Source: a virus
Taxonomy: Duplodnaviria; Heunggongvirae; Uroviricota; Caudoviricetes
Virus record (IMG/VR): IMGVR_UViG_2872185964_000004
DNA length: 17,968 nucleotides
Reading direction: 5' to 3' (one strand)
In this document: positions 1,462 to 15,225 of the stretch, one piece after another
Layout of the letters: each line of letters begins with the position of its first letter
Numbering within the stretch: position 1 is the stretch's first letter
Position numbers and translations under genes: made by a program
The notes under the pieces: generated by a model
The model's input: the letters and a program-made list of their open reading frames with translations, nothing else
Told to the model about the DNA's origin: nothing
The model's database searches: none

Positions 1462-1539
1462 ATATGTCCTTTTATCACCATATCAAGACAAACCATTGAT
1501 TTAATTAAATAATCTTCACTGCAAAAAGTGCCAAAAATC

Positions 1540-2035
1540 GCAAATTGACTACACCATTAACTACACCGTTCGGTGCACCGTATGAAACAACGTGGAACAA
1601 ATAGACACAAGAAATATACAGGCGGATCATCTTTCCAGGGGAAGCGCACCAATTCATGAGGGGCGTTAATGTCTATATGGGGATCCCCACCTACCGGAAT
1701 TTTTTTCCGGTTAAACGTTAATCAGGCTGGTGGGCTTTACCTGTTCGGTAGGTGTTATGATTATCGTAATACCTTTCCCCAATGGGGTAAAAGCATCAAC
1801 CGTAACGAAAGTCGTTATGGTTGCCACTGATACCCCAAATTTGGGTATCACGAGTAAGCCCCAAAATCTGGGTGTTACTCTTACTACCCAAACTACGGGT
1901 AGTTTCCGTAGTTTCATGGTCGAGTTGCAGATCTGCAACTCCCCCATTAACCACAGGCGAATTTCCGCCTTCGGTCATTCCTTAATCATCTGCGTAATCA
2001 TAATGATTATTCAGCAAGCGCAATTTTGCGCTTTG
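1540..2035. other. Palindrome-dense non-coding tract between phoQ and the packaging operon (candidate att/pac/ori or structured RNA region)
   Basis: Direct repeats ACTACACC (1548-1555, 1560-1567). Perfect or near-perfect dyads: CGGTGCACCG 1571-1580, TGGGGATCCCCA 1678-1689, CCGGAA-ttttt-TTCCGG 1694-1710, TAACGA-aag-TCGTTA 1803-1817, CCCAAATTTGGG 1834-1845, AAACTACGG-7nt-CCGTAGTTT 1890-1914, GAGTTGCAGATCTGCAACTC 1922-1941, AGGCG-6nt-CGCCT 1955-1970, TAATCAT-a-ATGATTA 1995-2009, AAGCGCAA-tt-TTGCGCTT 2016-2033. The ORFs in the track here overlap each other on both strands and look non-coding. Confidence 0.6.
1584..1613 (+). repeat. Three 10-bp-phased GAACAA-type repeats (site A); shares the 15-mer AACAACGTGGAACAA with site B
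   Basis: GAAACAAcgt / GGAACAAata / GACACAAgaa at an exact 10-bp period; 1586-1600 is identical to 9045-9059. Confidence 0.55.
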
Positions 2036-2195
2036 CTTAAAGTTCAGCGAGTTACCGCGCCGACTTCCTCAAATTGAGGTTTCCGAAAATATCAGCGGGT
2101 TAGCGATTAAGCTGACCATTAATTAAACTGCGAAAATGTCGTAGTTGTGAGGGGTGTAGCCAACCCATTTTTGGGCCGTCGGGAATATCAACCAG

Positions 2196-2477
2196 TTACC
2201 GCCGCAACCGCTCCGGCTTCTTCCAGTGGTACGTTATTTTCTCCTTCTCCCGATACATCTCCACGCGGCGACGGTAGGCCAGCAACTCAAGAACTCTGGT
2301 TCGTATGTTGCGCATATCCACGCCATTAAGTTCTATACCATCACGGCGCATCACCTCAGCAACAACACGCGCATAGTTTTCGGCTGTCACGCTGTCCGGC
2401 TGCGTGGCCTGTTCGTCAGCCTGCTGGCTGATTCCGGCAACGCGGCGGATTAATCCCGTTATTTCGGCTTCTGTCAT
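2196..2477 (-). CDS. Hypothetical protein (93 aa), last gene of the head/packaging operon
   Basis: ATG at 2477 preceded by TGAGGT Shine-Dalgarno; starts 11 nt after the TerL stop; no recognisable motifs. Confidence 0.5.
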   Translation of the reverse strand: MTEAEITGLIRRVAGISQQADEQATQPDSVTAENYARVVAEVMRRDGIELNGVDMRNIRTRVLELLAYRRRVEMYREKEKITYHWKKPERLRR

Positions 2478-2490
2478 GCTGCTGACCTCA

Positions 2491-4152
2491 TTACACCCCG
2501 CTAAATTCTTCCAGTTTCTGGCGGTGGCTGTCGCTTATATCAAAAGCAAAATCCTCATGCTCTGCCTGGAATGTACCAAACGCCATCAGCGCCGCCACGC
2601 TCGGGTCTATCTTGTTCGGTGATTTTTTCTTGTTCGGCTTGATATTGGCGTTCGCGTCACTCTGCATCACGACGTTACTCATCGACCAGGACAACACCGG
2701 ATCGCCACGATGCACAATCACCCTGCGGTTAACAAAAACTTCGAACGATTTCGCCGCCGGACTGAATCTGAGGTAGGTTTGCGGGAACGGCTCCACCTCA
2801 AAACCTGCCCCCTGTAATTGCGTTCTGAGATGCGTGGCGTTCCACGTATCAAAGCCCACCAGCCTGATATTAAATTTCTCCGCGTCCTGCATGATGTCAT
2901 CTCTGATCCGGTCGTAATCAATGCAGTCGCCAGGCGTTGTGCGTATCCAGCCTGCTTTAGCCCACTGACGATAGATGGCGCGGTTTTTATTGGCGGGGTT
3001 CTGTAGCTGGAACTCCGGCAGATAATGACGGGAAACCAGCATAATGGTTTTACCTACCGGAAAGGCATAGCACACGCTGGAAATATCGCTTGTGGATGAT
3101 AAATCCAGCCCCGCGTAACACTCCTGGCCGTGTAAATCTTCCTCCGTGAACGTTCCGGCACACTCAGCCCATGCGCCGTTACCCATCCACGGGGTAGTCC
3201 CCTGACACCAGATATTAAATCGCTTTGTCATCATCTCCACCCACTGCGACGGAATACCCCGCGCTTTCTGGATGGTTGAGGCCAGTTTTTCACGATCCAC
3301 GGAAACATCAATATTAGGGTTCGCTTTTATCCACATCGCCGGATCATCAACCTCGTTTTCGTCGTCCAGTTCGTAAATCAGTACAAAAATTGAATCGTTG
3401 ACCTCTTCGCCGTCCAGGATCTGGCAGCAATAATCATAGTGCTGCTTACAGGCTGAAACGACGTTACTGCCTGATGTGGTAATGGCAAATAACAGCCCTT
3501 CGGGACGTGCGCCCATCCCCAGCTCAAGCGCGGAATAAACGCCGTTATCGGGGTGTAGGTGGTATTCGTCCACGATGGAAAGGCTGGGGTTTGTTCCCTC
3601 GATGGTTGCCGCTTTTGCTGCCAGCGGCTTTAACAGGCTGTTGCTTTTCGGGTGTATCACCTTATGCGCCTGAATATTCACCCGCCTGCGTAACGGTCGG
3701 GATAAAAGGCACATCTGACGCGCATCATCAAAGACGATCCGCGCCTGGTCACGGCTCACCGCTGCGGTGTAAATATCCTGCTGACCGTTCTCCATAATCA
3801 GAAACCAGTTAGCCAGAATCGCGGCGGTCGTGGATTTCGCATTTTTGCGCGGCACTTCGATAAAGGCGCTCGTGTATTTGCGCCGTCCGGTGGCCTTAAC
3901 CTTAAAGCCGAGGATGCACGCAAAGGCGAACTGCTGCCACGGCTCCAGCTCAATGGGTCTGCCACGCATCGGTCCTTTTACGTGCGGGCACACCCTGGAA
4001 AAGGCAATAAACCGCTCCACAACCTCACGATCGAACGTGTAAAGGGGGCTTTTAAGATCCGAAAAGTACCGTTTAACGGCCTGTTTCAGCCGTTTACAGG
4101 CCGGAATTTTGCCCGTTTTTACGTCTTCTGCGTACTTATTCCAGGCGGTCAA
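2491..4152 (-). CDS. terL: Terminase large subunit (Terminase_1-type ATPase/nuclease)
   Basis: 553-aa ORF; Walker A-like VPRKNAKST; typical TerL length. Apparent TTG start at 4152 with AAGAGGA Shine-Dalgarno, overlapping the TerS 3' end by 17 nt. Confidence 0.9.
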   Translation of the reverse strand: MTAWNKYAEDVKTGKIPACKRLKQAVKRYFSDLKSPLYTFDREVVERFIAFSRVCPHVKGPMRGRPIELEPWQQFAFACILGFKVKATGRRKYTSAFIEVPRKNAKSTTAAILANWFLIMENGQQDIYTAAVSRDQARIVFDDARQMCLLSRPLRRRVNIQAHKVIHPKSNSLLKPLAAKAATIEGTNPSLSIVDEYHLHPDNGVYSALELGMGARPEGLLFAITTSGSNVVSACKQHYDYCCQILDGEEVNDSIFVLIYELDDENEVDDPAMWIKANPNIDVSVDREKLASTIQKARGIPSQWVEMMTKRFNIWCQGTTPWMGNGAWAECAGTFTEEDLHGQECYAGLDLSSTSDISSVCYAFPVGKTIMLVSRHYLPEFQLQNPANKNRAIYRQWAKAGWIRTTPGDCIDYDRIRDDIMQDAEKFNIRLVGFDTWNATHLRTQLQGAGFEVEPFPQTYLRFSPAAKSFEVFVNRRVIVHRGDPVLSWSMSNVVMQSDANANIKPNKKKSPNKIDPSVAALMAFGTFQAEHEDFAFDISDSHRQKLEEFSGV

Positions 4153-4492
4153 GCTCGTCCTCTTCTTCTGTTTCCGGTGGATTTTTACGGCGGCTTACCG
4201 GGTCAAAACCGAGCAAGGAGGCCATTTTTATCATCACTCTTTCAGCGTCGGATTTTGCGCTTAATGCGGGGTTTCTGCTCTCGCCGCCCTGACTGTTAAC
4301 AATGCTGAACCCGCGCGCCGCAAGGTCTGCGACGGCTTTGCGGTATATCGAGTAATTGACGCAATACAGTTCCAGATTGCTCCAGTCGGCGGGGGTCAGG
4401 TCTCCCCGTTCCGCAAGCTGCCGCGATTTTTCCCGCCACTGCTTCACGGCGATGTCATCCAGGTAGGCGGGGGCTTTCGGTGGTCTTGCCAT
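4136..4492 (-). CDS. terS: Terminase small subunit (P27-family-like)
   Basis: 118-aa ORF directly upstream of and overlapping terL; N-terminal basic region and acidic C-terminal tail (ETEEEDELDRLE) typical of small terminases; ATG at 4492. Confidence 0.78.
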   Translation of the reverse strand: MARPPKAPAYLDDIAVKQWREKSRQLAERGDLTPADWSNLELYCVNYSIYRKAVADLAARGFSIVNSQGGESRNPALSAKSDAERVMIKMASLLGFDPVSRRKNPPETEEEDELDRLE

Positions 4493-4613
4493 GCTTATTT
4501 TTCGTCAGATTATTTTTCAAAAAATTCCCGTGCATAAAAATTTGAGGAGGCGTTCGGTGCCCGGCGGGGTCGGGTTTGTCCTGAAAACGCCCCCACCCCG
4601 TCATACAGCCTCA

Positions 4614-4787
4614 TCAGCGATTGCGGAAACATTCCATAACCTCGCGGTCACGGTCGGTTAATCGCTTCGCTGTGATGCGTTCTGCGCGTCCTGACGCTTT
4701 ATCTTTATGCCCTGTTTCCTGTGTCTTCCATGCGTCACGCTGCCTTATAAGTCCACGGATAAGGCGGTTTTGTTCCCGCTCATTCAT
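4614..4787 (-). CDS. Putative small basic protein (57 aa) in the HNH-terS interval; uncertain
   Basis: ATG at 4787 overlaps the HNH stop by 4 nt (ATGAATGA). Product MNEREQNRLIRGLIRQRDAWKTQETGHKDKASGRAERITAKRLTDRDREVMECFRNR. The longer 134-aa ORF in the track overlaps HNH and is rejected. Confidence 0.25.
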   Translation of the reverse strand: MNEREQNRLIRGLIRQRDAWKTQETGHKDKASGRAERITAKRLTDRDREVMECFRNR

Positions 4788-5220
4788 CAGCGTCATACAT
4801 CCAGTTATTGCGGTTAGCGGCCCGTTCTTCCTCTTCACGAAATCCACCTGCGGCACGCTTGCTTTTTGTTGCCGGATCAAGCCACTTCGTTTTCTGGTTA
4901 TGACACGCCTGGCACAATGGCTGATGGTTCCATTCGGGCCAGAAGAGAACATCATCACCGCCATTAATCGGGATAATGTGATCCACCACCACGGCGGGCG
5001 TATATATCCCCTTCTCAAGGCATCGCACGCATAACGGGTTTTTACTCAGATACATGGCGCGGTATTTTTCCCACTGTCTGGAGTACCCACGCGCGCGGCG
5101 GTGTCCTCGTCTGGCATCCTCTGCACGCCATGCCGCCCGCCTGTGCTCCTCACACTTGCCGGACTTAACGCGCCTGTTACAGCCTGGTTCTGTACATCGT
5201 CTTAATGGTTGCCACGGCAT
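4780..5220 (-). CDS. HNH endonuclease (terminase-associated, HK97 gp74-like position)
   Basis: 146 aa; Cys-rich zinc-finger-like N-terminus (CTEPGCNRRVKSGKCEEH) and HNH core (VVDHIIPINGGDD...WNHQPLCQACHNQKT); sits directly upstream of terS as in cos-type HK97-like phages. Confidence 0.9.
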   Translation of the reverse strand: MPWQPLRRCTEPGCNRRVKSGKCEEHRRAAWRAEDARRGHRRARGYSRQWEKYRAMYLSKNPLCVRCLEKGIYTPAVVVDHIIPINGGDDVLFWPEWNHQPLCQACHNQKTKWLDPATKSKRAAGGFREEEERAANRNNWMYDADE

Positions 5221-5516
5221 CAGTACACCCCCACATCACGGTAAGCCGTCCAGAGCGCGCCAATCGTCATGGGTACGCGCGTTTTTGCGTTATCCACTAC
5301 CAGCTGGCGATTCTCGTACAGGTGAGCGATAAACATCATGCAGCCAATCTTTATGGCTGGCGTGAACTCCAGCCCGTCATCAAAGCGCCTGCCTATATGT
5401 ATCTGGCACGCCTCAAGCGATGCGGCAATGTATCCGCTGATTAACTGGTCTTCCTCGTCGCCATCGATGCGGCAATGGAGTTTCACTTCTTCCAGGGTGA
5501 TAAGTTCTTCTGTCAT
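5220..5516 (-). CDS. Head-tail connector / DNA-packaging protein (gp6-like, Phage_connect_1-type)
   Basis: 98 aa; N-terminal signature LITLEEVKLHCRIDGDEEDQLISGYIAAS typical of gp6-like connectors; its ATG overlaps the upstream stop (ATGA at 5513-5516). Confidence 0.72.
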   Translation of the reverse strand: MTEELITLEEVKLHCRIDGDEEDQLISGYIAASLEACQIHIGRRFDDGLEFTPAIKIGCMMFIAHLYENRQLVVDNAKTRVPMTIGALWTAYRDVGVY

Positions 5517-5851
5517 TTTTCCGCGCCCTCACGACAAAGAATTTCAAGGCGTGTCCTGGCGGCATCCGGCAGCGGTTGCCCGATGATATTCAGTACACGC
5601 CCCGCCAGCGGCCCCGTATTGACCTTTATCCGGCTGGTGGCGTTGATGTCCTTCCGGTACCGTATCCAGATCCTTACGGTACCAATCGCCAGCTCTGCAC
5701 CCGATGAAATGGCCTCCTTGCTGCTGATCATGTTCACGCTTGCCCAGAGTGTGTGACCGTCCTCCCACGTTTCGAGTATTTCGCCGGTTATATCCCTGGT
5801 CTGTTTCAGGGTCTGAATCGTTACCCTGTCACGCAGTCGCCCTATGTTCAT
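5513..5851 (-). CDS. Head-closure / head-tail adaptor protein
   Basis: 112 aa starting MNIGRLRDRVTIQ (head-closure family N-terminal signature); its ATG overlaps the portal stop (ATGA at 5848-5851). Confidence 0.72.
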   Translation of the reverse strand: MNIGRLRDRVTIQTLKQTRDITGEILETWEDGHTLWASVNMISSKEAISSGAELAIGTVRIWIRYRKDINATSRIKVNTGPLAGRVLNIIGQPLPDAARTRLEILCREGAEK

Positions 5852-7059
5852 TCCGGCTTTTCTCCCTCGCTGATTTTTACTTCCTGTTTCCATGCCTGGC
5901 TGAACTCATCACCACCATCACGCGGGGACAGCCCTTCACGTTCGCGGGCTTCGTTCGGGCACATAACGCCGGATTTGATGCCGCGTTCATAGGTGGCAAA
6001 GCGTTCGCCAGGTGTGGCCCGTAACAGGTCCGCGCTGTCAAACTCCACCTGATACCGGATACCAGGTACAGGTGAGGCCACCAGCAGGGCGTTTTTTATC
6101 TGCTGCTCAAAGTTCGCCAGCCACGGGCGCATCGTCATGGTGAGAAATGCGCGGCTTGCCTCGCTGAAATTGCTGTAGGTGCTGTTGCTGTATTCCTGCA
6201 GAAAAATCGGCGAGACGTTGAACATTCGGGCGATGTCTTCAATGGTGAAGCGACGGGAGGCCAGCCATTCAGCATCCTGATTACTCATGCCCAGCTGCTG
6301 ATAGCTCATACCCCCTTCAAGGATGGGCGTTTTTCCGGCGTTTCTGGCCCCTTTGTAGCGTTCCAGTGCGGCTAATGCCTGTTTGCCCTTCACGCCGTCC
6401 AGCCATTCGCCTGACGTGATAACCCCTGCCGCCATCATGCCATCACGCATCACGCTCGCGCCGTGGCGCTGTTGGGCCAGCCCAAGCCCCAGCGATTCTC
6501 GGCAGATGGTTACAGGTGAGCGCCCCATAAAACCGTCATCCGTGGAGTAACGAAGGTGGAGAACCTCCCACGGTAAATAGTTGCGGGTGTTTCCGGTGTA
6601 GGCGTCAGTGATGCAGTAGCGCCAGTTATGCTCACCTGTCTGCTCAACGTTCACCGACTGCGGCGGGTAAGGATGCAAAGCGACCGGAAAACCATCACGC
6701 CCCCACTGAATCACCGCATAAGCATTACCGTTTAACAGGCAGTGGCGGATCATCATTCGCTTAAACTGGTAGGGGGTTTGCCATGCGTTCGGGCGCTCGT
6801 TGAGGATGTGATCGACCGGATGAGAATCAAGCCACTCGCGGGCCTCCTTCCCCTTCTCATTGCGTACCAGGTACAGGTAACACGGCATGGTAGCCACCGC
6901 CTCAGAGATGACCGTCACGGCATTCATGACGGCGGGCAGTGATTCCGCTGTCCCCGATGATACGTACTCACCCGCCCCCGTGTTCGATGTGCCAGCCAGC
7001 GCCATAAACTCATCAAGCGTCATGCTGCGCTGCTCTTTTTTTCTTCTGAAAGGCCACAT
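5848..7059 (-). CDS. Portal protein (HK97-family)
   Basis: 403 aa, typical portal size and composition; ATG at 7059 lies 1 nt after the protease stop. Confidence 0.88.
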   Translation of the reverse strand: MWPFRRKKEQRSMTLDEFMALAGTSNTGAGEYVSSGTAESLPAVMNAVTVISEAVATMPCYLYLVRNEKGKEAREWLDSHPVDHILNERPNAWQTPYQFKRMMIRHCLLNGNAYAVIQWGRDGFPVALHPYPPQSVNVEQTGEHNWRYCITDAYTGNTRNYLPWEVLHLRYSTDDGFMGRSPVTICRESLGLGLAQQRHGASVMRDGMMAAGVITSGEWLDGVKGKQALAALERYKGARNAGKTPILEGGMSYQQLGMSNQDAEWLASRRFTIEDIARMFNVSPIFLQEYSNSTYSNFSEASRAFLTMTMRPWLANFEQQIKNALLVASPVPGIRYQVEFDSADLLRATPGERFATYERGIKSGVMCPNEAREREGLSPRDGGDEFSQAWKQEVKISEGEKPE

Positions 7060-7060
7060 A

Positions 7061-7519
7061 TCACACCCCCGCTAAATCCGCCCACCAGCGGCGATTATCC
7101 GCACGCGGCATTTTTTCGGGGTGCTGCTCATACAGGGAACGGCGGGCCAGCTCCACGTCGGAATCAGGGTAAGCCGGTACGGATGTAACGGTAATTTCGT
7201 ACAGTTCCGCCACCAGCACGGTGCGCACGCATGGATCTGTTGTGGTATCCCATACATCCTTACGGGAACGAAAGCCAAAGCTCATGCCGGATATATCACC
7301 TCGTTTAACCAGTTCGATAACGTCGCGCCCTGTACTGGTATCCGGTGGGGTCAGTTCAAAGCGTAACCCTGTTTCGTCCTCTTCCAGTTTCAGCGTGCCG
7401 GAACGGGTGCGCCCCAGTAACATGCTGTGGTCATGCTCATACAGGCCGCGAACGTCATTACCCGCCGCAAGCCATTCAGTAAACGCCCCCCGCTGGAATT
7501 TTTCGTAAAACTCACCCAT
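7061..7519 (-). CDS. Prohead protease (HK97 family, S78 peptidase); N-terminus apparently displaced into another frame
   Basis: 152-aa ORF with protease core motifs (GEFYEKFQRGAF, HDHSMLLGRT, GTLKLEEDETGL, SFGF). The expected N-terminus (MKSMEIRSSEITTSGAGTLTGYIVCWDKLSELL) is encoded in a different frame at 7520-7617. Confidence 0.85.
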   Translation of the reverse strand: MGEFYEKFQRGAFTEWLAAGNDVRGLYEHDHSMLLGRTRSGTLKLEEDETGLRFELTPPDTSTGRDVIELVKRGDISGMSFGFRSRKDVWDTTTDPCVRTVLVAELYEITVTSVPAYPDSDVELARRSLYEQHPEKMPRADNRRWWADLAGV

Positions 7520-7641
7520 AACAGTTCTGAAAGCTTATCCCAGCAAACAATGTAGCCCGTCAGCGTACCGGCTCCGCTGGTGGTGATTTCCGATGACCGG
7601 ATTTCCATACTCTTCATAATTTTTTCACCCATAAAACACTA

Positions 7642-7661
7642 AAGGGGCTTTTAAGCCCCTT
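7642..7661 (-). terminator. Stem-loop between the major capsid and protease genes (possible attenuator or mRNA stabiliser)
   Basis: On the minus strand: AAGGGGCTT-AA-AAGCCCCTT followed by TTTAGTGTTTTAT, in the 39-nt gap after the capsid stop. Confidence 0.35.
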
Positions 7662-7671
7662 CTGTATGCTG

Positions 7672-8829
7672 TTAATCGTCGTCCTGTGGCAGTTCCAGAA
7701 TCTTGATCGCGTTCGAATCCACCACGCCACCGCCTAAATATTTCTGCGCGAAAATTTTGATGAAGCCCGGCTCTGTGAGGTTGTCCGGTCTGGTGCGAAC
7801 ACCTGTTTCGTGATCAACAATGTAGTAACCGCGTTTGAAGTCACCCAGGGCAATAACGTTATCCGGCATAAACTCCAGATATTCGACCGGAAGGCCCAGC
7901 AACGTATCAGGATCACCCGCCTGTAAACGGTCACGCCAGATGTAATCACCGTTCGCGTTCTTCACCTTCTGGAGTTTTGCCGCCGTCGTGGAGTTAACCA
8001 CCCAGACCGCGTTTTTGCGGTATTTTTTACGTAATGCAAATTTCAGGTCGATCAGCGGGTCCGCAGATGTCCACGCCAGAGATTCGGAAGGTTTAATTAC
8101 CTGCAACGTACCAAAATCACGCTCTTTGTCGTTCTTCTCTGCACGGGGTACGGATAAAAAGCCTTTTGCTTTTTTGTCACCGTCGCCCACAACCAGATCG
8201 CTTTCTTCGGTTTCCGTGAAGGTGTCGCCAATCTCGCCCGTCAGCCATGAAAGGATGTCCACATCGGAAAAATCCACAATTTCCTGCGTGGTGCGCGGGT
8301 ACGCATAGACCGGATACAGCTTAATGCTCACCTCGTTAATCTGCGGGGTGCTGGTCTGTTCGCGTGCCTTACCCTCTTCACCGTGGTTAACGGTCGCACC
8401 GCCAGCGGAAACAAGCTGCTTAAACTCGTTGCTGCTGATTTTCTTCACGGTACAGATGCGGCGCATGGTGGATTCATCCGTCAGCATTCGCATGATTTCG
8501 GTGTTCAGTTCGGGGATAACGGTATAACCACCATCAGCGGGAACGCCTGTACTCAATGCGCGGGTTTCACCTGTCAGAATGTAGTGACGTAGTTCGGCGG
8601 GGTCAGTGGTCTGGCTGTTTTTGCCTGGTTTACTGCGCTCTTCGTCAGCAACGGCCTCAAGGCGGGAGATGTCTTTATCGAGTGATTCAGCTTTAGCGCG
8701 TAATTCGTCAAATTTTGCGCCCTCAGCATCGTTAAGGCTGCGGTTTTCTTTTTCCGCGTTCTCCAGCATGTCGCGCATCTGATTTTTAATGGCGGTTTTC
8801 TGCTGGCGTAATTCGATTATTCTCGGCAT
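7672..8829 (-). CDS. Major capsid protein (HK97 fold) with N-terminal coiled-coil delta/scaffold-like domain
   Basis: 385 aa from the ATG at 8829 (MPRIIELRQQKTAIKNQMRDM...); charged helical N-terminal ~100 aa followed by a capsid-like body; the track ORF begins 16 codons earlier at a non-ATG start. Confidence 0.88.
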   Translation of the reverse strand: MPRIIELRQQKTAIKNQMRDMLENAEKENRSLNDAEGAKFDELRAKAESLDKDISRLEAVADEERSKPGKNSQTTDPAELRHYILTGETRALSTGVPADGGYTVIPELNTEIMRMLTDESTMRRICTVKKISSNEFKQLVSAGGATVNHGEEGKAREQTSTPQINEVSIKLYPVYAYPRTTQEIVDFSDVDILSWLTGEIGDTFTETEESDLVVGDGDKKAKGFLSVPRAEKNDKERDFGTLQVIKPSESLAWTSADPLIDLKFALRKKYRKNAVWVVNSTTAAKLQKVKNANGDYIWRDRLQAGDPDTLLGLPVEYLEFMPDNVIALGDFKRGYYIVDHETGVRTRPDNLTEPGFIKIFAQKYLGGGVVDSNAIKILELPQDDD

Positions 8830-9040
8830 AAAAAAAGTCCTGAAGTTAAGTAAGGAACTCCAGGACGCGGCAAACACTCAACCGTTTTTCATAAGGAAAT
8901 CAGCAATCGCACCGATCGTTTTCCCGCCTGGTAATGAATATTGGCGAGCACATTAACAGGCGGGAAAGTGGCCCCAGCGTCCTGGCACCACGGGCGAGAA
9001 TAATCATGATTCAGTTCGGGTAAAATATGCCGATCCGGTC

Positions 9041-9070
9041 AGCGAACAACGTGGAACAACCACGAACAAA
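9041..9070 (+). repeat. Three 10-bp-phased GAACAA repeats (site B) in the promoter region of the head operon
   Basis: GAACAA at 9044-9049, 9054-9059 and 9064-9069; 15-mer AACAACGTGGAACAA at 9045-9059 is identical to site A; lies between the terminator and the capsid gene. Confidence 0.55.
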
Positions 9071-9086
9071 TAATTTACAAAACATG

Positions 9087-9109
9087 ACAAAAAGCCGGAT
9101 TGCTCCGGC
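9087..9109 (-). terminator. Rho-independent terminator closing the replication/early operon
   Basis: On the minus strand: GCCGGA-GCAA-TCCGGC (perfect 6-bp stem, GNRA-like loop) immediately followed by TTTTTGT. Confidence 0.65.
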
Positions 9110-9116
9110 TGTGTGA

Positions 9117-9389
9117 TTATCTGTCCTGGTAATTTCGCCATATTTCATCACCAGCACCATCCATACCCATTTCGGCATAAGTGCGATCGACCGCCTTTTT
9201 CAGGTCTCCGTAATTATCCGGCGGCTCCGGTGGCCTCTGTGCCTTCCTGGAACATTCCAGCCGTCGCATCGTGATGTGATGCCGTTCCTTGTCTGTCTCC
9301 ACCAGTTGCATGACTTCACCCCATCGCGCCGACGCTCTCCGGTAAAAGCCTTTCGCCTCCAGTTCTTCCGCTATGCGGTCATGTACCAT
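9117..9389 (-). CDS. Hypothetical small protein (90 aa), possible regulator
   Basis: ATG at 9389 with GAGGGG Shine-Dalgarno (the track ORF starts at an upstream GTG); charged helical protein. Confidence 0.5.
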   Translation of the reverse strand: MVHDRIAEELEAKGFYRRASARWGEVMQLVETDKERHHITMRRLECSRKAQRPPEPPDNYGDLKKAVDRTYAEMGMDGAGDEIWRNYQDR

Positions 9390-9401
9390 CGTCCCCACCC
9401 C

Positions 9402-9812
9402 TCAGAACGGAATATCATCACCGTAAGGGTCATCGCCTCCCGCTGGTGGCTGATTACCCTGTGTGCCTGTGGTCTTGCGTCGGCTCCCACCAGGACGTGC
9501 CGCACGGGCACTGATTACGCTGTCTGCAATAACCTGATAACCCTGCCGCGTTTCCCCGTTCTGTCCGGTCCACTGGCTGACCTGCATCGTGCCGGATACG
9601 CTGGCAACGTCGCCTTTTTGATGTTTAGCCAGGAAGTCGGCCTGCTTACCAAATGCGATGACCGATAGCCATAACGTCGCCTGTCCATCCTGTGCCTGGC
9701 TGCATGGCAGCGATACCGCCATACGCGCCAGCGTCATCGGTGTACCCTTGCTGGTCTGTTTTACCTGCGGGTCGTCCACCAGCCGCCCGTAAGCTGCAAT
9801 TTGTGCTGTCAT
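9402..9812 (-). CDS. ssb: Single-stranded DNA-binding protein
   Basis: 136 aa; OB-fold-like N-terminus, Gly/Pro/Gln-rich linker and the diagnostic acidic C-terminal tail ...DDPYGDDIPF; ATG at 9812 with GAGGTGG Shine-Dalgarno. Confidence 0.85.
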   Translation of the reverse strand: MTAQIAAYGRLVDDPQVKQTSKGTPMTLARMAVSLPCSQAQDGQATLWLSVIAFGKQADFLAKHQKGDVASVSGTMQVSQWTGQNGETRQGYQVIADSVISARAARPGGSRRKTTGTQGNQPPAGGDDPYGDDIPF

Positions 9813-9821
9813 ATTGCCACC

Positions 9822-10112
9822 TCAGTGAAGCGATCCGGCGTTGTTCTTTTTCATCTCTTCCATCATTTTTTCAGTGAGCATTACGCACTGAAAACCCATG
9901 TTTTTGATGTCTACGGGTTTCATGCCTTTGTCAGTGGATATCACAGGCAGAATATCCTGATACACATCGCGGTCAGGGTAACTAAGCACACAAAGCGCCC
10001 ATGATGCCACGGGTGAGGATCCTTCGTCTGTTTCAACCCACCAGCCTGGTGTAGCTGCGCTTATTTGCTGAATCGTGATCCGTCCGTTGTGCTTGTAAAG
10101 TTTTTTCACCAA
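9822..10112 (-). CDS. Hypothetical protein (~96 aa)
   Basis: ORF with a non-ATG (TTG/GTG) start near 10109-10112; no motifs recognised. A separate 31-codon ATG ORF overlaps the upstream stop in another frame. Confidence 0.4.
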   Translation of the reverse strand: MVKKLYKHNGRITIQQISAATPGWWVETDEGSSPVASWALCVLSYPDRDVYQDILPVISTDKGMKPVDIKNMGFQCVMLTEKMMEEMKKNNAGSLH

Positions 10113-10124
10113 ATTTTGGTTCGC

Positions 10125-10376
10125 TCATGATTCCAACTCTCCGGTTTTAACGTTGATTGTTGTTACCTGTTCCGCTTCGGCAATCTCCCGTTCTGTCAGC
10201 GTGGCAAAGTTTGCCGCCGCCGTGGTCATGAATGCGCTTATCAGGTCGGGATGTTCCTTCGCGTATCCTTCCCGCGTGTGGCGGTCTATCATTCTGATTG
10301 CCACCTTTAAGGTGTGCTCAGTCATGTCTAACGCTTTATATTTTGGCTCTGTTCTGTCTCTGCGTTTTTGGGTCAT
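10125..10376 (-). CDS. Hypothetical protein (83 aa)
   Basis: ATG at 10376 with GAGAGG Shine-Dalgarno; the track ORF begins upstream inside the iteron region. Confidence 0.45.
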   Translation of the reverse strand: MTQKRRDRTEPKYKALDMTEHTLKVAIRMIDRHTREGYAKEHPDLISAFMTTAAANFATLTEREIAEAEQVTTINVKTGELES

Positions 10377-10388
10377 TTCTCGCAACCT

Positions 10389-10576
10389 CTCACTTTTTCG
10401 CCTCACTTTTTCAAGCGTCTCACTTCGTCGCAGTTGGGATTTTCGGTTTTTCTATGTGTGTGTTTCATAAGTATTTTTTTACCCCTCACTTTTGAGGATG
10501 TATACAGGTCGAAAAGTGAGGGGAGCGGGCTAATTTTGGCCCTCTTTCTACCCCCTCGCTTTTGCTCCTCACTTTT
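10389..10576. repeat. Iteron cluster (CTCACTTTT) with an embedded 12-bp inverted repeat; putative replication origin
   Basis: CTCACTTTT or variants at 10389-10397, 10402-10410, 10419-10426, 10485-10493, 10555-10563, 10568-10576. Inverted pair CCCCTCACTTTT (10482-10493) / AAAAGTGAGGGG (10512-10523) with an 18-bp spacer. Sits immediately 3' of the RepA-like ATPase gene. Confidence 0.5.
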
Positions 10577-11558
10577 ATAGCGGCGCTACATCATCCCCAT
10601 CGATACGAATAACCCCATCTTTTTCCAGCTTGTACAGCCAGCGCCGGAAGTTTTTCATTTCATACCCCAGCTTTTTCATGTCATCACGTAACAGCTGGAT
10701 CGTGCACTTGTCGCCGTTCTGTGTGCGTGAACGGATGCACCCCCATAGCGCGGTATGGTTTTCCGTCTTGTTCCCTGCCTCCTCTATGCGCTCCAGTTCA
10801 ACAGGAGGGCGCGGATCATCCACCACCACCAGCGACGTGATTAATTCACCGTCAGCGTCGGTAAAAAGCTCCACCACGCGTAAGTCATATGCGGCTTCTT
10901 TGAGTTCCTCCGCGTCCTTCATTTTGGTGCATGAGATAACCAGCGCTTCGCTTCCTGCGTCCTCCCTGCGTATCCGGTATTCAGCATCCAGCGAAGCACG
11001 AAATGCACTGGAGCCGCGCGCGCCTTTCGTCTCATCCTTGCCGGAATGGTGAACCACCAGCACCGTGGCCCCTGTGCGTCGTTTCAGTTCGTCACAACCA
11101 CGGATAAACGCCCCCATATCACGGGAATCATTTTCATCATTCCCACCAAAGCAACGCGCCAGCGTATCCAGAATAATCATGCGTACAGGTTTACCCGTTT
11201 CCCGCTCCACCTGACGGGCAGCGATAACCATTTCATCAACATCAAGCGGGGCAGCCGGAAAGATGGGGCGGTTTACCAGATACAGATTTTTCACCTGCTC
11301 ATCGTGCACAACCTCCCAGGCTTTTACACGACGCGGAACACCTATACCGCCTTCACCAACCACATAGAGAACCGCACCATGTGCAACCCTGCGGCCTCCC
11401 CACTGGCGACCAGTGGCAACATGGCACGCCCACGATCCGGCAAGGAATGATTTATAGGACCCGCTAGCCCCGTATATGCTGCATAGCGATACCGCCGGAA
11501 TAATCCCCTTAACCACGTAATCCAGTTGCGTGTCGTATCCGGTAGATCCAACGCTCAT
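10575..11558 (-). CDS. AAA_25 / RepA-like RecA-fold ATPase (replication helicase-like protein)
   Basis: P-loop GASGSYKS, Walker B IILDTL, and the HHSGK...RGSSAF motif characteristic of RepA/DnaB-like ATPases. Start placed at ATG 11558, which overlaps the upstream stop (ATGA at 11555-11558); an in-frame ATG at 11660 is the alternative. Confidence 0.75.
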   Translation of the reverse strand: MSVGSTGYDTQLDYVVKGIIPAVSLCSIYGASGSYKSFLAGSWACHVATGRQWGGRRVAHGAVLYVVGEGGIGVPRRVKAWEVVHDEQVKNLYLVNRPIFPAAPLDVDEMVIAARQVERETGKPVRMIILDTLARCFGGNDENDSRDMGAFIRGCDELKRRTGATVLVVHHSGKDETKGARGSSAFRASLDAEYRIRREDAGSEALVISCTKMKDAEELKEAAYDLRVVELFTDADGELITSLVVVDDPRPPVELERIEEAGNKTENHTALWGCIRSRTQNGDKCTIQLLRDDMKKLGYEMKNFRRWLYKLEKDGVIRIDGDDVAPL

Positions 11559-11974
11559 CGGTAGCGTGGTTTTTCGCTGGTGGTTTTTTTCTTCCACCGG
11601 CTCTTTCCCGCGCACCCGTTCCAGGTATTCGCGCCAGTTCTCCCGCATATGGCTGTGCATCCCTTCGGGTAATAATTCGCATCAGTTACACCCGCCGCCG
11701 CCAGCTTGTGCGCAATGGCATTAATATTTGATGGCCTGATGTGGCCTGCCTTGTACAGCCGGACACAATAGCGCCCCTCGTCGATGATTCTCAGGTCTGC
11801 CAGTTCATCCAGTTGATCATCAGCCAGCACAACGGGAGGCACATTATCGCCAGCCAGTCGCCCGTCCTGTTCCTGCCACTGTTTCGCATGTGCCCAGGCA
11901 TCACTACCCGCAAAAATAATGACTTCGGTCATCTTGTCGTAAGGCTGTTTTTTTAAGTTCGGTGCGCTTTTCAT
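11555..11974 (-). CDS. Hypothetical protein (139 aa), co-translated with the ATPase
   Basis: ATG at 11974 overlapping the upstream stop (ATGA at 11971-11974); no confident motif. Confidence 0.5.
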   Translation of the reverse strand: MKSAPNLKKQPYDKMTEVIIFAGSDAWAHAKQWQEQDGRLAGDNVPPVVLADDQLDELADLRIIDEGRYCVRLYKAGHIRPSNINAIAHKLAAAGVTDANYYPKGCTAICGRTGANTWNGCAGKSRWKKKTTSEKPRYR

Positions 11975-12270
11975 TTCTTGCCCCTGAATCCGTTAATCAT
12001 GGTTTTCAGCTTCTGGATGTTTGCCCGTGCCCTGGCGTTGCTGGTGGGCACGTTATGCGGCGCGGTCTGTACCAGAGAAAAATCACGCCGGAACTGATAA
12101 ACAGACATCACGCAATCATATTCGTAACCTTCACGGCGGTAGGTTACACGCCGTTCTTCCACGCCCTTAATCATTACCGTGCCGCCGTACTGGTCGCGGT
12201 AAATATCACCGCGCGTAAATTTAGGGTGAGTGTTGCCACTGGCAGTTAAGCCAGAATATTTAAGTTTCAT
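11971..12270 (-). CDS. Hypothetical protein (99 aa)
   Basis: ATG at 12270 with GGAG upstream; basic protein. Confidence 0.5.
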   Translation of the reverse strand: MKLKYSGLTASGNTHPKFTRGDIYRDQYGGTVMIKGVEERRVTYRREGYEYDCVMSVYQFRRDFSLVQTAPHNVPTSNARARANIQKLKTMINGFRGKK

Positions 12271-12275
12271 TATTT

Positions 12276-12509
12276 TTATTCTCCGGTGTGCTGTTCTTTA
12301 TATCTGTCGTGCAATAGATCTATTTCTTGCAGTTCCATTATTACAGGCTCAAGAAGCGTTATTAATGCCGTGGCAATTCTTGATTTTTGTTCGTCGCGTT
12401 CATTGTCGCCAAGTGTTTCAAGCCATATGCGCAATATTTCCAGCATGTTTTCACTGTGAGAAAGTGCAAGAAATGCGCGGTCTATTGTTTCGTGGTAAAT
12501 ATCACGCAT
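12276..12509 (-). CDS. Hypothetical protein (77 aa), first gene of the replication operon
   Basis: ATG at 12509 with GAGGA Shine-Dalgarno; the IS1 composite is inserted 76 bp upstream of this start codon. Confidence 0.5.
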   Translation of the reverse strand: MRDIYHETIDRAFLALSHSENMLEILRIWLETLGDNERDEQKSRIATALITLLEPVIMELQEIDLLHDRYKEQHTGE

Positions 12510-12576
12510 GGCTTACATCCTCAGGAAATTTTCTTCTGTAACGCGCCTCTGCCACATATTCCGCATAATCGGCGGC

Positions 12577-12585
12577 GATATTCAG
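12577..12585. repeat. 9-bp target-site duplication GATATTCAG (left copy)
   Basis: Identical 9-mer directly abuts the outer IS1 ends at 12577-12585 and 14098-14106. Confidence 0.85.
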
Positions 12586-13329
12586 GGTGATGCTGCCAAC
12601 TTACTGATTTAGTGTATGATGGTGTTTTTGAGGTGCTCCAGTGGCTTCTGTTTCTATCAGCTGTCCCTCCTGTTCAGCTACTGACGGGGTGGTGCGTAAC
12701 GGCAAAAGCACTGCCGGACATCAGCGCTATCTCTGCTCTCACTGCCGTAAAACATGGCAACTGCAGTTCACTTACACCGCTTCTCAACCCGGTACGCACC
12801 AGAAAATTATTGATATGGCCATGAATGGCGTTGGATGCCGGGCAACTGCACGCATTATGGGCGTTAGCCTCAACACGATTTTACGTCACTTAAAAAACTC
12901 AGGCCGCAGTCGGTAACCTCGCGCATACAGCCGGGCAGTGACGTCATCGTCTGCGCGGAAATGGACGAACAGTGGGGATACGTCGGGGCTAAATCGCGCC
13001 AGCGCTGGCTGTTTTACGCGTATGACAGGCTCCGGAAGACGGTTGTTGCGCACGTATTCGGTGAACGCACTATGGCGACGCTGGGGCGTCTTATGAGCTT
13101 GCTGTCACCCTTTGACGTGGTGATATGGATGACGGATGGCTGGCCACTGTATGAATCCCGCCTGAAGGGAAAGCTGCACGTAATCAGCAAGCGATATACG
13201 CAGCGAATTGAGCGGCATAACCTGAATCTGAGGCAGCACCTGGCACGGCTGGGACGGAAGTCGCTGTCGTTCTCAAAATCGGTGGAGCTGCATGACAAAG
13301 TCATCGGGCATTATCTGAACATAAAACAC
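12586..13329 (+). mobile_element. IS1 copy 1 (744 bp, lacks the right terminal inverted repeat)
   Basis: Begins with the IS1 left inverted repeat GGTGATGCTGCCAACTTACTGAT; contains insA, the A6C frameshift motif (12892-12898) and the insB frame; ends at ...AACATAAAACAC and is directly abutted by copy 2. Confidence 0.93.
12641..12916 (+). CDS. insA: IS1 InsA (copy 1)
   Basis: 91-aa product [22 protein letters not shown]...[11 protein letters not shown] start. Confidence 0.93.
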
Positions 13330-13356
13330 GGTAATGCTGCCAACTTACTGATTTAG
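12868..13356 (+). CDS. insB: IS1 insB reading frame (copy 1), expressed as the InsAB' transposase by -1 frameshift
   Basis: insB frame with transposase motifs. An in-frame TAG at 12865-12867 lies upstream of the frameshift site, so the fusion is unaffected. The C-terminus is altered (...[12 protein letters not shown]) because the frame runs into copy 2. Confidence 0.8.
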
Positions 13357-13384
13357 TGTATGATGGTGATTTTAAGGTGCTTGC

Positions 13385-13660
13385 GTGGCTTCCATTTCCA
13401 TCAGATGTCCTTCCTGCTCCGCTACTGAAGGCGTGGTGCGTAACGGCAAAAGCACTGCCGGACATCAGCGCTATCTCTGCTCTCATTGCCGTAAAACATG
13501 GCAACTACAGTTCACTTACACCGCCTCTCAGCCCGGTACGCACCAGAAAATCATTGATATGGCCATGAATGGCGTCGGATGTCGCGCCAGTGCACGCATT
13601 ATGGGCGTTGGCCTCAACACGGTTTTACGTCACTTAAAAAACTCAGGCCGCAGTCGGTAA
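13385..13660 (+). CDS. insA: IS1 InsA (copy 2)
   Basis: 91-aa product [22 protein letters not shown]...; A6C frameshift motif at 13636-13642. Confidence 0.93.
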
Positions 13661-14082
13661 CCTCGCGCATACAACCGGGCAGTGATGTGATTGTCTGCGC
13701 TGAAATGGACGAACAGTGGGGCTACGTCGGTGCTAAATCACGTCAGCGCTGGCTGTTTTACGCGTATGACAGGATACGGAGGAGGGTTGTGGCGCACGTC
13801 TTCGGTGAACGCACTCTGGCCACACTGGAGCGTCTTCTGAGCCTGCTGTCGGCCTTTGAGGTCGTGGTATGGATGACGGATGGCTGGCCGCTGTATGAAT
13901 CACGCCTGAAGGGAAAGCTGCACGTTATCAGCAAGCGTTACACTCAGCGCATTGAGCGACATAATCTGAATCTGAGACAACATCTGGCAAGGCTGGGACG
14001 GAAGTCACTGTCGTTCTCAAAATCGGTGGAGCTGCATGACAAGGTCATCGGGCATTATCTGAACATAAAACACTATCAGTAA
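13579..14082 (+). CDS. insB: IS1 InsB (copy 2)
   Basis: 167-aa ORF ending ...HYLNIKHYQ, the canonical InsB C-terminus. Confidence 0.9.
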
Positions 14083-14097
14083 GTTGGAGTCATTACC

Positions 14098-14106
14098 GAT
14101 ATTCAG
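14098..14106. repeat. 9-bp target-site duplication GATATTCAG (right copy)
   Basis: Matches 12577-12585 exactly. Confidence 0.85.
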
Positions 14107-14247
14107 TACATCAAGCCCGTTGATTTATATTCTCTCGTGGAAAGTAAGAAAAAAGCCGCTCTAATAAGTTCTGGCATTGACGAAAGCGCACCAGCCGCAT
14201 CATCAGGAACGCCGGAAAATTCCTGTTTCAGGGAATTAAAACGATCA

Positions 14248-14613
14248 TCACGCATGTTTACCCCCCTGAATGACCTGATAACCGCAACTGGTCAGCAACT
14301 CGATAAATTCCGGCAGTGTGCCGAAACAGCAATCATCACGCAGCCGTTCGCAGGATACCTCGACGCCGTTTTCGTAGTGACTCACCATACATCCGGTAAA
14401 ATGCAGATCATCATCGTGATGGCTCGTTGACGGCTTAATCAGTCGCGCACGTTCCGCCAGTTCTAGCAATGCTTCAACGCTTCCGGCAATTGCACCATCC
14501 GGCAGGTGATAATTACGCACTATGCGCCCGTTCTCCACATTGACCAGCAACTGCCCGGTAAATTTCTCGTCAAACTGAATGCTGTTAAGGTCAGAAATTG
14601 ACAGGTTATGCAT
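14248..14613 (-). CDS. Hypothetical protein C (121 aa), third gene of a small three-gene operon
   Basis: ATG at 14613 with AGGAGG Shine-Dalgarno, 2 nt after the stop of gene B. Weak, unverified resemblance to CbeA/YfjZ-type antitoxins (LVNVENGRIVRNYHLPDGA; ...SCGYQV). Confidence 0.6.
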   Translation of the reverse strand: MHNLSISDLNSIQFDEKFTGQLLVNVENGRIVRNYHLPDGAIAGSVEALLELAERARLIKPSTSHHDDDLHFTGCMVSHYENGVEVSCERLRDDCCFGTLPEFIELLTSCGYQVIQGGKHA

Positions 14614-14830
14614 GGTGCACCTCCTGCACATCAGCCATGATAATTTTTCCGGCCTTATCCAGTGCCTGATCGGCTTTTAGCTGCACAAATGCTAAATAAT
14701 GGAAGATGCATTCTGATTCTCTGGCTGCGTGTTTATGCGCCCTGTCAGCAATAACAGAAATATCAATCAGCGCATGCATTAGCGTTATGATGGCTTCGGC
14801 GGCTGCGTCCGGACGGGTGTTATTGCACAT
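14606..14830 (-). CDS. Hypothetical protein B (74 aa)
   Basis: ATG at 14830 with AGGAGG Shine-Dalgarno; overlaps the gene A 3' end by 11 nt. Confidence 0.6.
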   Translation of the reverse strand: MCNNTRPDAAAEAIITLMHALIDISVIADRAHKHAARESECIFHYLAFVQLKADQALDKAGKIIMADVQEVHHA

Positions 14831-15026
14831 GGCACACCTCCTGACGAATACGGGCAGCGAATACCATCACGCAGCCAGCCGGGGATTGCTGGCGTGCTTC
14901 CTGTTCGCTGGTGGCCTCGATGGTAATCACGCGCGGTTGTGCCGTGCTCAGGGCGATAAAACGCCAGATGTATTTATTCAGGTCGTGCGAGTCCCGCCCT
15001 TGCGGGTGTGTGGTATGATTTCTCAT
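14820..15026 (-). CDS. Hypothetical protein A (68 aa), first gene of the leftward operon
   Basis: ATG at 15026 with GAGG Shine-Dalgarno. This is the only credible part of the 333-aa track ORF 14820-15821, whose remainder crosses the operator region and is antisense to the RHH gene. Confidence 0.55.
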   Translation of the reverse strand: MRNHTTHPQGRDSHDLNKYIWRFIALSTAQPRVITIEATSEQEARQQSPAGCVMVFAARIRQEVCHVQ

Positions 15027-15123
15027 AGCTGCCTCGATACTTTCGCTATCGTTGGTGGTTAGAAGCCCGGTTAGTGTTAGCGCACTGCCGGGTTTCGTCG
15101 TTTCTGCACCTTGCGCCAACAAG

Positions 15124-15175
15124 GTGTTGAACACCAATTTAAACCCAGGTGTTAAACACGTCAAGTGTTGAACAC
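15124..15175. promoter_or_regulatory. Three palindromic operator-like sites GTGTT(G/A)AACAC in a divergent promoter region
   Basis: GTGTTGAACAC 15124-15134, GTGTTAAACAC 15149-15159, GTGTTGAACAC 15165-15175. A candidate sigma70 promoter for the RHH gene (-35 TTGAAC 15168-15173, 17-bp spacer, -10 CATACT 15191-15196) overlaps the third site. Confidence 0.6.
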
Positions 15176-15225
15176 TTATTTTTTTTCCTGCATACTGCAT
15201 TTGTTTTTTATGAGGGGTACACCAC

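Follow-up and report, generated by a model that had tools for sequence, protein, structure and literature searches.

RIB elements, found where transcription units end (3′), carry sites for integration host factor (IHF) between palindromic units (Boccard & Prentki 1993, cited by PMC3333891). In P4-like satellites, the hotspot between psu and int is described as turning over fast by recombination (PMC13586616; PMC9122126), and the first of these reports (P4/P2 hotspots, NAR 2026) makes no mention of palindromes, hairpins, terminators or inverted repeats. For EcCICFT073, a classical phage-inducible chromosomal island (PICI) of CFT073, published work maps cos, ori and rpp. Here we analyse a 17,968-nucleotide stretch of DNA from a Caudoviricetes virus record (IMG/VR IMGVR_UViG_2872185964_000004), referred to as the window, which holds an island inserted between phoQ and roxA, the same integration site as that of EcCICFT073. 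Its gene set is that of the capsid-forming PICIs (cf-PICIs) of Alqurainy et al. (bioRxiv 10.1101/2022.09.08.507074), and the element is a cf-PICI. Escherichia coli FORC_042 carries a 99%-identical island between phoQ and roxA, and in K-12 the phoQ/roxA site is empty. The subject of this study is a palindrome-rich tract (1470–2195) between the attachment (att) core and the last island gene, an open reading frame (ORF) of 93 amino acids; the non-coding stretch from the left junction to this gene measures 735 nt, and the published work on EcCICFT073 does not describe such a tract.

The tract is a composite of an att arm (1460–~1760) and a mosaic of palindromic modules (~1825–2195). The resemblance to RIB and BIME-1 elements is broad; the tract is extragenic and lies 3′ of an operon, its IHF consensus sequences are flanked by palindromes, and it is a mosaic of few motif types with a strain-variable number of units and covarying arms. 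It differs from them in that the repetitive extragenic palindrome (REP) consensus found no full-length match within 15 substitutions and only a 7-nt blastn-short match; in that the tract occupies 1–7 places per genome, at PICI ends, whereas RIBs number in the hundreds chromosome-wide; and in that its units are tandem and of one orientation, whereas a RIB is made of REP/iREP pairs. EcCICFT073 and its relatives have the tract at the same island position, and EcCICFT073 shares the 93-aa ORF and the T1 units described below but is without module B and carries other T1 types. The P4-like hotspot is topologically equivalent, being bounded in the circular form by the last late gene on one side and attP/int on the other; it holds defence genes, whereas the PICI region is almost always non-coding. 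We read the tract as an att arm joined to a PICI-specific, RIB/BIME-1-like mosaic at the non-coding end of the cf-PICI, which would act as an IHF-organised boundary and a recombination-prone end module, and we give this reading about an even chance. An IHF–palindrome repeat family at satellite ends was previously undescribed in the PICI literature that we found.

An oriented IHF consensus joined to a palindrome

Hairpins were counted as perfect inverted repeats with a stem of at least 6 and a loop of at most 8, and the counts were compared with 1000 dinucleotide-preserving shuffles. By this measure, 1540–2035 holds 11 perfect inverted repeats against a shuffle mean of 1.0 (standard deviation 1.0, maximum 6), and all other 496-nt segments of the 17,968 nt hold at most four (mean 0.95). 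A sequence-only reading of this DNA had claimed at least ten palindromes in a non-coding stretch, at a density far above background. The counts bear out the density, and the tract is non-coding; the five ORFs that overlap the palindromes were without a match in Pfam or PHROG families, and RefSeq annotates nothing between phoQ and the 93-aa ORF in the FORC_042 copy. A tRNA/tmRNA scan found none. The same reading took every dyad to be a different sequence, but many of them have a CAA(W)(W)TTG or CCCAAA/TTTGGG centre in common and fall into repeat families. It missed both the mosaic build from these families and the oriented IHF consensus attached to the palindromes.

The commonest module, T1, reads TAAC-NNN-Y-TGAT-W-TT-YYCG in the island sense, followed by a hairpin. 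The reverse complement of this leader is WATCARNNNNTTR, the IHF consensus, which reportedly derives from Craig & Nash 1984 and later compilations. The T1 units of the tract are as follows.

2010–2058, minus strand: T1 unit c, a degenerate IHF-like leader at 2043–2055 (one mismatch) and a palindrome at 2016–2033 (extended 2012–2036)
2055–2105, minus strand: T1 unit b, the IHF consensus TATCAGCGGGTTA at 2090–2102 (read on the plus strand) and the palindrome CCTCAAATTGAGG at 2067–2079
2150–2198, minus strand: T1 unit a, the IHF consensus TATCAACCAGTTA at 2186–2198 (read on the plus strand) and a hairpin at 2161–2180

The TTA within the consensus of unit a corresponds, as its complement, to the stop codon with which the 93-aa ORF ends. 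In 39 of 75 distinct tracts (52 kb), the last gene has its stop codon overlapped by the first IHF site. Where two units join, the sequence GGCGCGGTAAC (-TNGYTGAT) reproduces the final codons and the stop of the 93-aa ORF. Palindromes lie on both flanks of the WATCARNNNNTTR sites at 2090–2102 and 2186–2198, and successive T1 units put each IHF site between two palindromes.

The IHF consensus is both enriched and oriented. Nine perfect matches occur in the window where 1.1±1.1 are expected, a number reached by none of 200 shuffles; two are those of T1 units a and b, one lies in the att arm, and three lie in the ends of two IS1 copies. IS1 ends are said to have been established experimentally as IHF sites by Gamas et al. 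1987, and the IS1 matches therefore serve as an internal positive control. In the 75 distinct tracts the consensus is present 136 times in one orientation and twice in the other, with ~1.6 expected per strand, a ratio that overstates the number of independent events because the copies are related by descent. Among 37 distinct T1 units, variation in the leader is confined to bases that the consensus gives as N, W or R, and the specified positions are invariant or nearly so. The hairpin follows at a set distance: a perfect stem of at least 5 occurs within the next 40 nt in 73% of 70 distinct T1 units and in 18% of shuffles, and the centre of the palindrome falls 28–29 nt from the start of the IHF site in 45 of 51 units. 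The sequence of the palindrome itself varies, with 24 different left arms among T1 units.

Pairing without a preferred strand

Covariation in T1 was scored on a plain MAFFT alignment of the 37 distinct units, made without regard to structure. Pairing reaches 85.9% in the six-pair helix, in which four pairs show changes of both partners. The two helices tested comprise nine pairs and give 47 double-change cells, compared to 17.8±3.0 in shuffles (0 of 500 reach 47), and the covariation score is 0.386, compared to at most 0.10 for slid partner columns. A second family, T2, is represented in the tract by one unit.

1973–2012, minus strand: T2 unit, CTGAAT, the palindrome TAATCATAATGATTA (1995–2009), CGCAGA, a second copy of the right arm and AAGG

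The arms of the T2 family covary (AATCAT/ATGATT, GGTCAT/ATGACC, GGTGAT/ATCACC), and so does the third segment. The pairing constraint on the T1 and T2 families is real, and it is strand-symmetric. Compensatory change had been proposed from sequence as the mark of an RNA and strict conservation as that of protein sites; compensation is present in T1 and T2, including a G-C to T-A change in an orthologue of T1 unit c, and the signal is strong among paralogous T1 units, weak in module B and in orthologues, and replaced by one-sided change in the palindrome TGGGGATCCCCA of the att arm. DNA palindromes would give an equal signal. An argument from loop size for symmetry at the DNA level was dropped: 8 of the 13 hairpins of the tract have loops of at most 2, but so do 14 of the 33 in the background. 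One hairpin bears some likeness to the E. coli type I-E CRISPR repeat, to the boxes of Fur and ArgR and to the R″/R′ boxes of integrons, which was judged by eye to be due to chance.

Alternatively, the tract could be a structured 3′ untranslated region of the late operon or a separate multi-hairpin RNA, in which the IHF-like leader would be incidental; its stem-loops could halt 3′-to-5′ exonucleases, cause RNA polymerase to pause or terminate, or recruit an RNA chaperone. The tract lies immediately 3′ of the last gene of a co-directional set of ~15 kb, the T1 hairpin covaries, and the units are all oriented like the operon, an orientation that tandem descent alone would also give. REP hairpins stabilise upstream mRNA (PMC3333891). 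Relative to shuffles, the predicted folds of 1610–2195 are very stable, with z = −8.5 for the island-sense strand and z = −11.3 for the plus strand, and it is the plus strand, not the sense strand, that folds slightly better. Searches for signs of an RNA were negative: Rfam gave 0 matches at gathering score and noise only at E ≤ 10, a U tract is missing after every hairpin of the tract, and promoter-like sites are no more frequent than expected by chance. A single terminator-like site falls in 1400–2600, inside the end of the 93-aa ORF, where shuffles lead to an expectation of 1.5; an array of intrinsic terminators was rejected on the absent U tracts and this chance-level count. Mismatches that would be G·U pairs number 8 on island-sense RNA and 10 on the opposite strand in T1 helices, and 10 and 7, respectively, in all hairpins, showing no strand bias in either set. 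Such strand-symmetric pairing suits DNA palindromes, or hairpins that could be used on either strand, no less well than a dedicated RNA. The evidence leans against the multi-hairpin RNA put forward in the sequence-only reading, and we consider an RNA-level element, a 3′ untranslated region included, rather unlikely, although it is one of the two main rivals to our reading.

A mosaic of modules at island ends

The tract was compared across 55 related loci, consisting of IMG/VR contigs found via the 93-aa protein and of E. coli genomes. Sharp block borders fall at 1825, 1946, ~2050, 2103 and 2150, and the blocks are present, absent, duplicated or in other order between islands. Besides the T1 and T2 units, the mosaic (~1825–2195) contains the following modules.

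1825–1946: module B, hairpins at 1828–1850, 1855–1881, 1883–1914 (two alternative pairings) and 1922–1941
1953–1979: hairpin ACAGGCGAATTTCCGCCT…, in relatives a perfect 9–12 bp palindrome (locus L004, GGCGGAATTCCGCC; locus L090, GAGGGCGGA/TCCGCCCTC)
2126–2146: spacer-module hairpin AACTGCGAAAATGTCGTAGTT, in locus L032 the perfect palindrome ACTACGAAATTTTCGTAGT

Module B recurs as a 123-nt block, 88–95% identical, in PICIs of other att sites, namely L004 (near tRNA-Ile/mug), L005 (clpS) and L073. Where a segment is swapped for unrelated sequence, the replacement is palindromic again. Downstream of the 93-aa ORF, four loci (L034, L042, L066 and L088) have tract variants without T1 units, which carry four GTGAC iterons at 10–11 bp spacing and then a canonical terminator (GACGTGGCCAACGTC + T6).

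Tract modules are present in 1099–1383 of 5426 complete E. coli genomes, at ~1,700–1,900 places in total, and the genomic places that were inspected are all PICI ends. A blastn search of a phage collection with the tract found no match. Across four att sites the tract is invariably found at the end of the island opposite int, even behind a last gene other than the 93-aa ORF; an island beside yejO has a tract block other than module B and, as its last gene, a capsid gene. Among cf-PICIs, TerL is 96–99% identical, the 93-aa ORF falls to 89% and the tract ranges over 75–98%; TerL is steady while ORF and tract diverge, and ORF and tract therefore form an exchangeable end module. In locus L089 the product of the last gene is only 45% identical to the 93-aa protein and the architecture of the gene end is kept, with an IHF consensus lying across the stop codon and followed in turn by a hairpin and a GGGATCCCC-type palindrome. 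The 93-aa family is very narrow (36 representatives at 50% clustering) and common to classical and capsid-forming PICIs. The protein has no Pfam or NCBIfam match, its AlphaFold model (three helices, predicted local distance difference test score 60) is uninformative, and a scan of genome contigs with it found a single Shigella locus.

A mosaic of this kind might instead be functionless debris of repeated illegitimate or homologous exchange, its palindromes kept or perfected by intrastrand template switching (quasipalindrome correction) and not by selection. Debris would suit the unit junction GGCGCGGTAAC-TNGYTGAT that copies the last codons and stop of the 93-aa ORF, the highly variable unit number, the near-neutral divergence of the tract, the pairing without strand asymmetry and deletion variants such as locus L072. 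It would not lead one to expect that the information in the leader coincides with precisely those positions which the IHF consensus specifies, that the spacing between site and palindrome is fixed, that non-homologous replacement segments are again palindromic, or that the architecture persists beside an ORF of 45% identity. We regard this explanation, the other main rival, as unlikely.

The sharp-bordered modules in varied contexts and orders also recall small mobile palindromic elements (REP/RAYT-like, IS200/IS605-derived, attC-like or miniature inverted-repeat transposable elements) inserted repeatedly at the island end, as does the combination of a hairpin and a conserved flank, which resembles the substrates of HUH enzymes and integron integrases. 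Repeated insertion is hard to square with a single orientation (136 versus 2) and with confinement to PICI ends at 1–7 places per genome and absence from the phage collection. The units have no similarity to the REP consensus, the island is without a transposase or integron integrase apart from IS1, and the palindrome sequences differ by unit, which a sequence-specific enzyme would not tolerate. Mobile elements are, on these grounds, a very unlikely source of the array.

A proposed boundary and end module

In the reading that we favour, each T1 leader would be occupied by IHF and the DNA bent there, and the palindromes would form hairpins in the transcript or in negatively supercoiled DNA. IHF and the hairpins together may constitute a boundary element at the point of convergence between the induced late operon and phoPQ. 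The ~20-nt leaders, being conserved, would provide patches of homology at which the end module of 93-aa ORF and tract could be swapped between PICIs, and such swapping would account for the mosaic that is observed. The comparisons establish the anatomy of the tract, its family structure, orientation, covariation and distribution; we infer IHF binding, the boundary function and the role in recombination from sequence, and for the T1 leaders from their agreement with the consensus. That these cassettes are a functional family of the satellites' own, acting as an IHF-dependent architectural, insulating and end-module-exchanging element, is a tentative proposal; we hold it to be possible, if doubtful.

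Several observations weigh against this reading. Islands of the same att type have 0 to 7 units each, and with the GTGAC-iteron variants this makes the array dispensable for the basic life cycle. In the closest relatives the tract is 98% identical and the third codon positions of TerL are 97% identical, which places the tract near the neutral level. The leaders of 10 of the 37 distinct T1 units are one position off the IHF consensus, which is the ground for predicting binding in the first place, and shared descent discounts the orientation bias as noted above. The hairpins of module B are kept in 11 distinct variants, with compensatory change in only 2 of 34 pairs, and palindrome changes between close orthologues are mostly one-sided. 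Lastly, a description of the tract was not found in the PICI literature on cos, att, IHF and hotspots.

The attachment arm

The att-arm part of the tract is ordinary for a tyrosine-recombinase element. Its features are listed from the junction inward.

1460–1469: att core AAATATGTCC, which marks the left junction and overlaps the phoQ end; a second copy marks the right junction in the FORC_042 island (L001 32784–32793)
1489–1501, minus strand: IHF consensus AATCAATGGTTTG, a perfect match, between the core and the arm-type sites
1548–1568, plus strand: tandem Int arm-type repeat ACTACACC-ATTA-ACTACACCG (21-mer ACTACACCATTAACTACACCG)
1583–1600, plus strand: TGAAACAA / TGGAACAA repeats
1678–1689: palindrome TGGGGATCCCCA, identical in 33 of 39 homologues
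1693–1711: ACCGGAA-T5-TTCCGGT, an inverted repeat with an A/T tract at its centre; the hairpin is not maintained
1726–1733, plus strand: Chi octamer GCTGGTGG, part of a conserved block, with an unchanged relative position in most variants of the tract
1772–1823: two imperfect hairpins (1772–1794 and 1797–1823) on the inner border of module A, which is specific to the att type

At the empty site of K-12 the sequence is AAATATGCCC, with a single copy of the core. In related islands the IHF consensus stands at a constant 66 nt from the arm repeats, and an identical 21-mer ACTACACCATTAACTACACCG lies beside the int start at the opposite island end (L001 32639–32659). The TGAAACAA/TGGAACAA repeats were correctly placed within the tract from sequence, as GAACAA repeat site A, and belong to the att arm; they recur at the right end (L001 32684–32701) and downstream of int (16650–16715). 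The latter region, on the minus strand between int and alpA, is a run of (G/A)AACAA repeats, GTGAAACAACGAGACACAACGACGAACAACAAGGAACAAAATGGAACAA, with the motif as in both att arms, and is possibly a binding array for Int or AlpA. EcCICFT073 is 90% identical to window positions 1462–1740.

The attP arms of lambda, of elements with P4-family integrases and of PAI I-536 offer the matching arrangement, with a core at both junctions, arm repeats in both arms and IHF between. By this analogy, Int would bridge arm and core while IHF bends the intervening DNA, as in other tyrosine-recombinase elements. The likeness is limited to ~1460–1760, whereas the array lies 350–730 bp from the core and is optional at the same att type. 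Only the block 1440–1825 tracks the phoQ/roxA att type, and the further modules are common to other att sites and vary in number. The suggestion that the palindromic stretch is an attP arm accordingly holds for its left ~140–300 nt, with the 10-bp core, Int arm-type repeats and IHF consensus, and fails for the modules beyond 1825. In locus L072 the whole att arm is deleted, with the tract fused to the phoQ end at a TTTCGG microhomology; with its att arm deleted, this island copy is probably immobile.

The palindromes of the att-arm block vary in a different manner from T1 and T2. All six variants of TGGGGATCCCCA among the 39 homologues are altered on one side only, without compensation. The ACCGGAA-T5-TTCCGGT repeat is perfect in 14 of the 39, and the remainder have one-sided mismatches with 0 compensated. 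Changes in the hairpins at 1772–1823 are mostly one-sided in homologues, and the border of module A is sharp at 1825. From their substitution patterns, these palindromes appear to behave as protein sites or chance features, not as hairpins. A palindrome centred on GGGGATCCCC recurs among PICIs of four att sites, at varying positions in the tract (L087 4600–5140, L088 4380–5250, L089), and its extended forms reach 26 bp (CCCGATATGGGGATCCCCATATCGGG). As it is conserved in sequence and its variants are one-sided, it is probably a protein-binding site, and we regard it as a candidate of that kind.

The GGGGATCCCC palindrome, together with the many palindromes that are symmetric through the centre, gives some credence to the whole tract being an array of operators in which each palindrome binds a different dimeric regulator of the host, the helper phage or the island. 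However, the arms of T1 and T2 change on both sides with pairing kept, unlike the half-sites of a fixed protein, and the modules are optional; an operator array is highly improbable. Dam sites had also been pointed out at two palindromes. GGATCC and AGATCT are both present, and a role for Dam finds no backing in a GATC count of 3 in 726 nt where ~2 are predicted (49 in the whole window).

Packaging and replication

A pac site or second origin had been among the roles suggested for the tract, which was placed downstream of the last packaging gene. The last gene is in fact the 93-aa ORF (2196–2477, minus strand), with TerL just upstream of it. Nearness to the terminase genes and the density of repeats would suit a packaging (cos/pac) site or an origin. 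However, a search for the lambda-type cosN GGGCGGCGACCT with at most 2 mismatches found 0 in the island part of the window, the sole match lying in phoQ. EcCICFT073 has two functional cos sites (PMC6092414, PMC6739421). Its lambda-type cosN sequences, at L002 14901–14912 (plus strand) and 15640–15651 (minus strand), are in opposite orientations and both outside the tract; the first lies ~90 nt upstream of a 144-aa gene, probably rppA, and the second between this gene and the 93-aa ORF.

The modules are found in PICIs with Rpp/lambda-cos, TerS-only and own-capsid packaging, and being common to three packaging strategies they are not tied to one packaging system. By analogy with HK97-type phages, the cos site of a cf-PICI would presumably lie between HNH and TerS (4493–4779), away from the tract. 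The variation in unit number from 0 to 7 among islands of one type counts against an origin, and together with the iteron/terminator variants it led us to reject an origin or an essential recombination component. A packaging site or second replication origin in the tract is therefore barely credible.

Gene content of the island

Positions 1–1461 of the window are phoQ on the plus strand; to the right lies a single mobile element with every gene on the minus strand.

2196–2477, minus strand: 93-aa ORF, phrog_1561, unknown function; travels with the tract as an exchangeable end module
2491–4152, minus strand: TerL
4136–4492, minus strand: TerS, P27 family
4780–5220, minus strand: HNH
16191–16379, minus strand: alpA
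16739–17968, minus strand: int

Inward of alpA are genes for a RepA-type helicase, SSB and PerC, followed by HK97-type capsid, protease, portal and head-completion genes. The genes of the ~15-kb set are co-directional (leftward), and the tract is directly 3′ of the last one.

Two tandem IS1-family copies, one apparently shortened, interrupt the island at 12586–14098. Their inverted repeats lie at 12586–12608, 13329–13352 and 14075–14098, with InsA-like ORFs at 12641–12916 and 13385–13660 and InsB-like ORFs at 12961–13356 and 13579–14082. The copies are 91% identical over 300 nt, and the otherwise 99% identical FORC_042 island is without them. The ~16.5 kb island also has 17 Chi octamers (1726–17084), seven GCTGGTGG on the plus strand and ten on the minus strand, and phoQ has 0. 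The E. coli chromosomal average is ~1 per 4.5 kb, and the density in the island is several-fold above it; this excess may shield linear injected satellite DNA from RecBCD.

Implications

PICIs, the capsid-forming type included, are intensively studied, yet the several hundred non-coding bases that lie between the last gene and att are undescribed in the literature that we found. If the array is debris, an eye-catching sequence feature would be explained as ordinary. If it is instead an IHF-organised mosaic as we propose, this would be the first case of a BIME/RIB-like repeat family that belongs to a class of mobile elements and not to the chromosome, and it would offer a tractable system for the function of IHF–palindrome mosaics. 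The repeat families and the small ORF module, found across four att sites, may serve as a marker for satellite ends. IHF binding and deletion phenotypes provide a concrete and cheap hypothesis, and the tract could become a low-copy model for the long-debated function of RIB/BIME-type elements.

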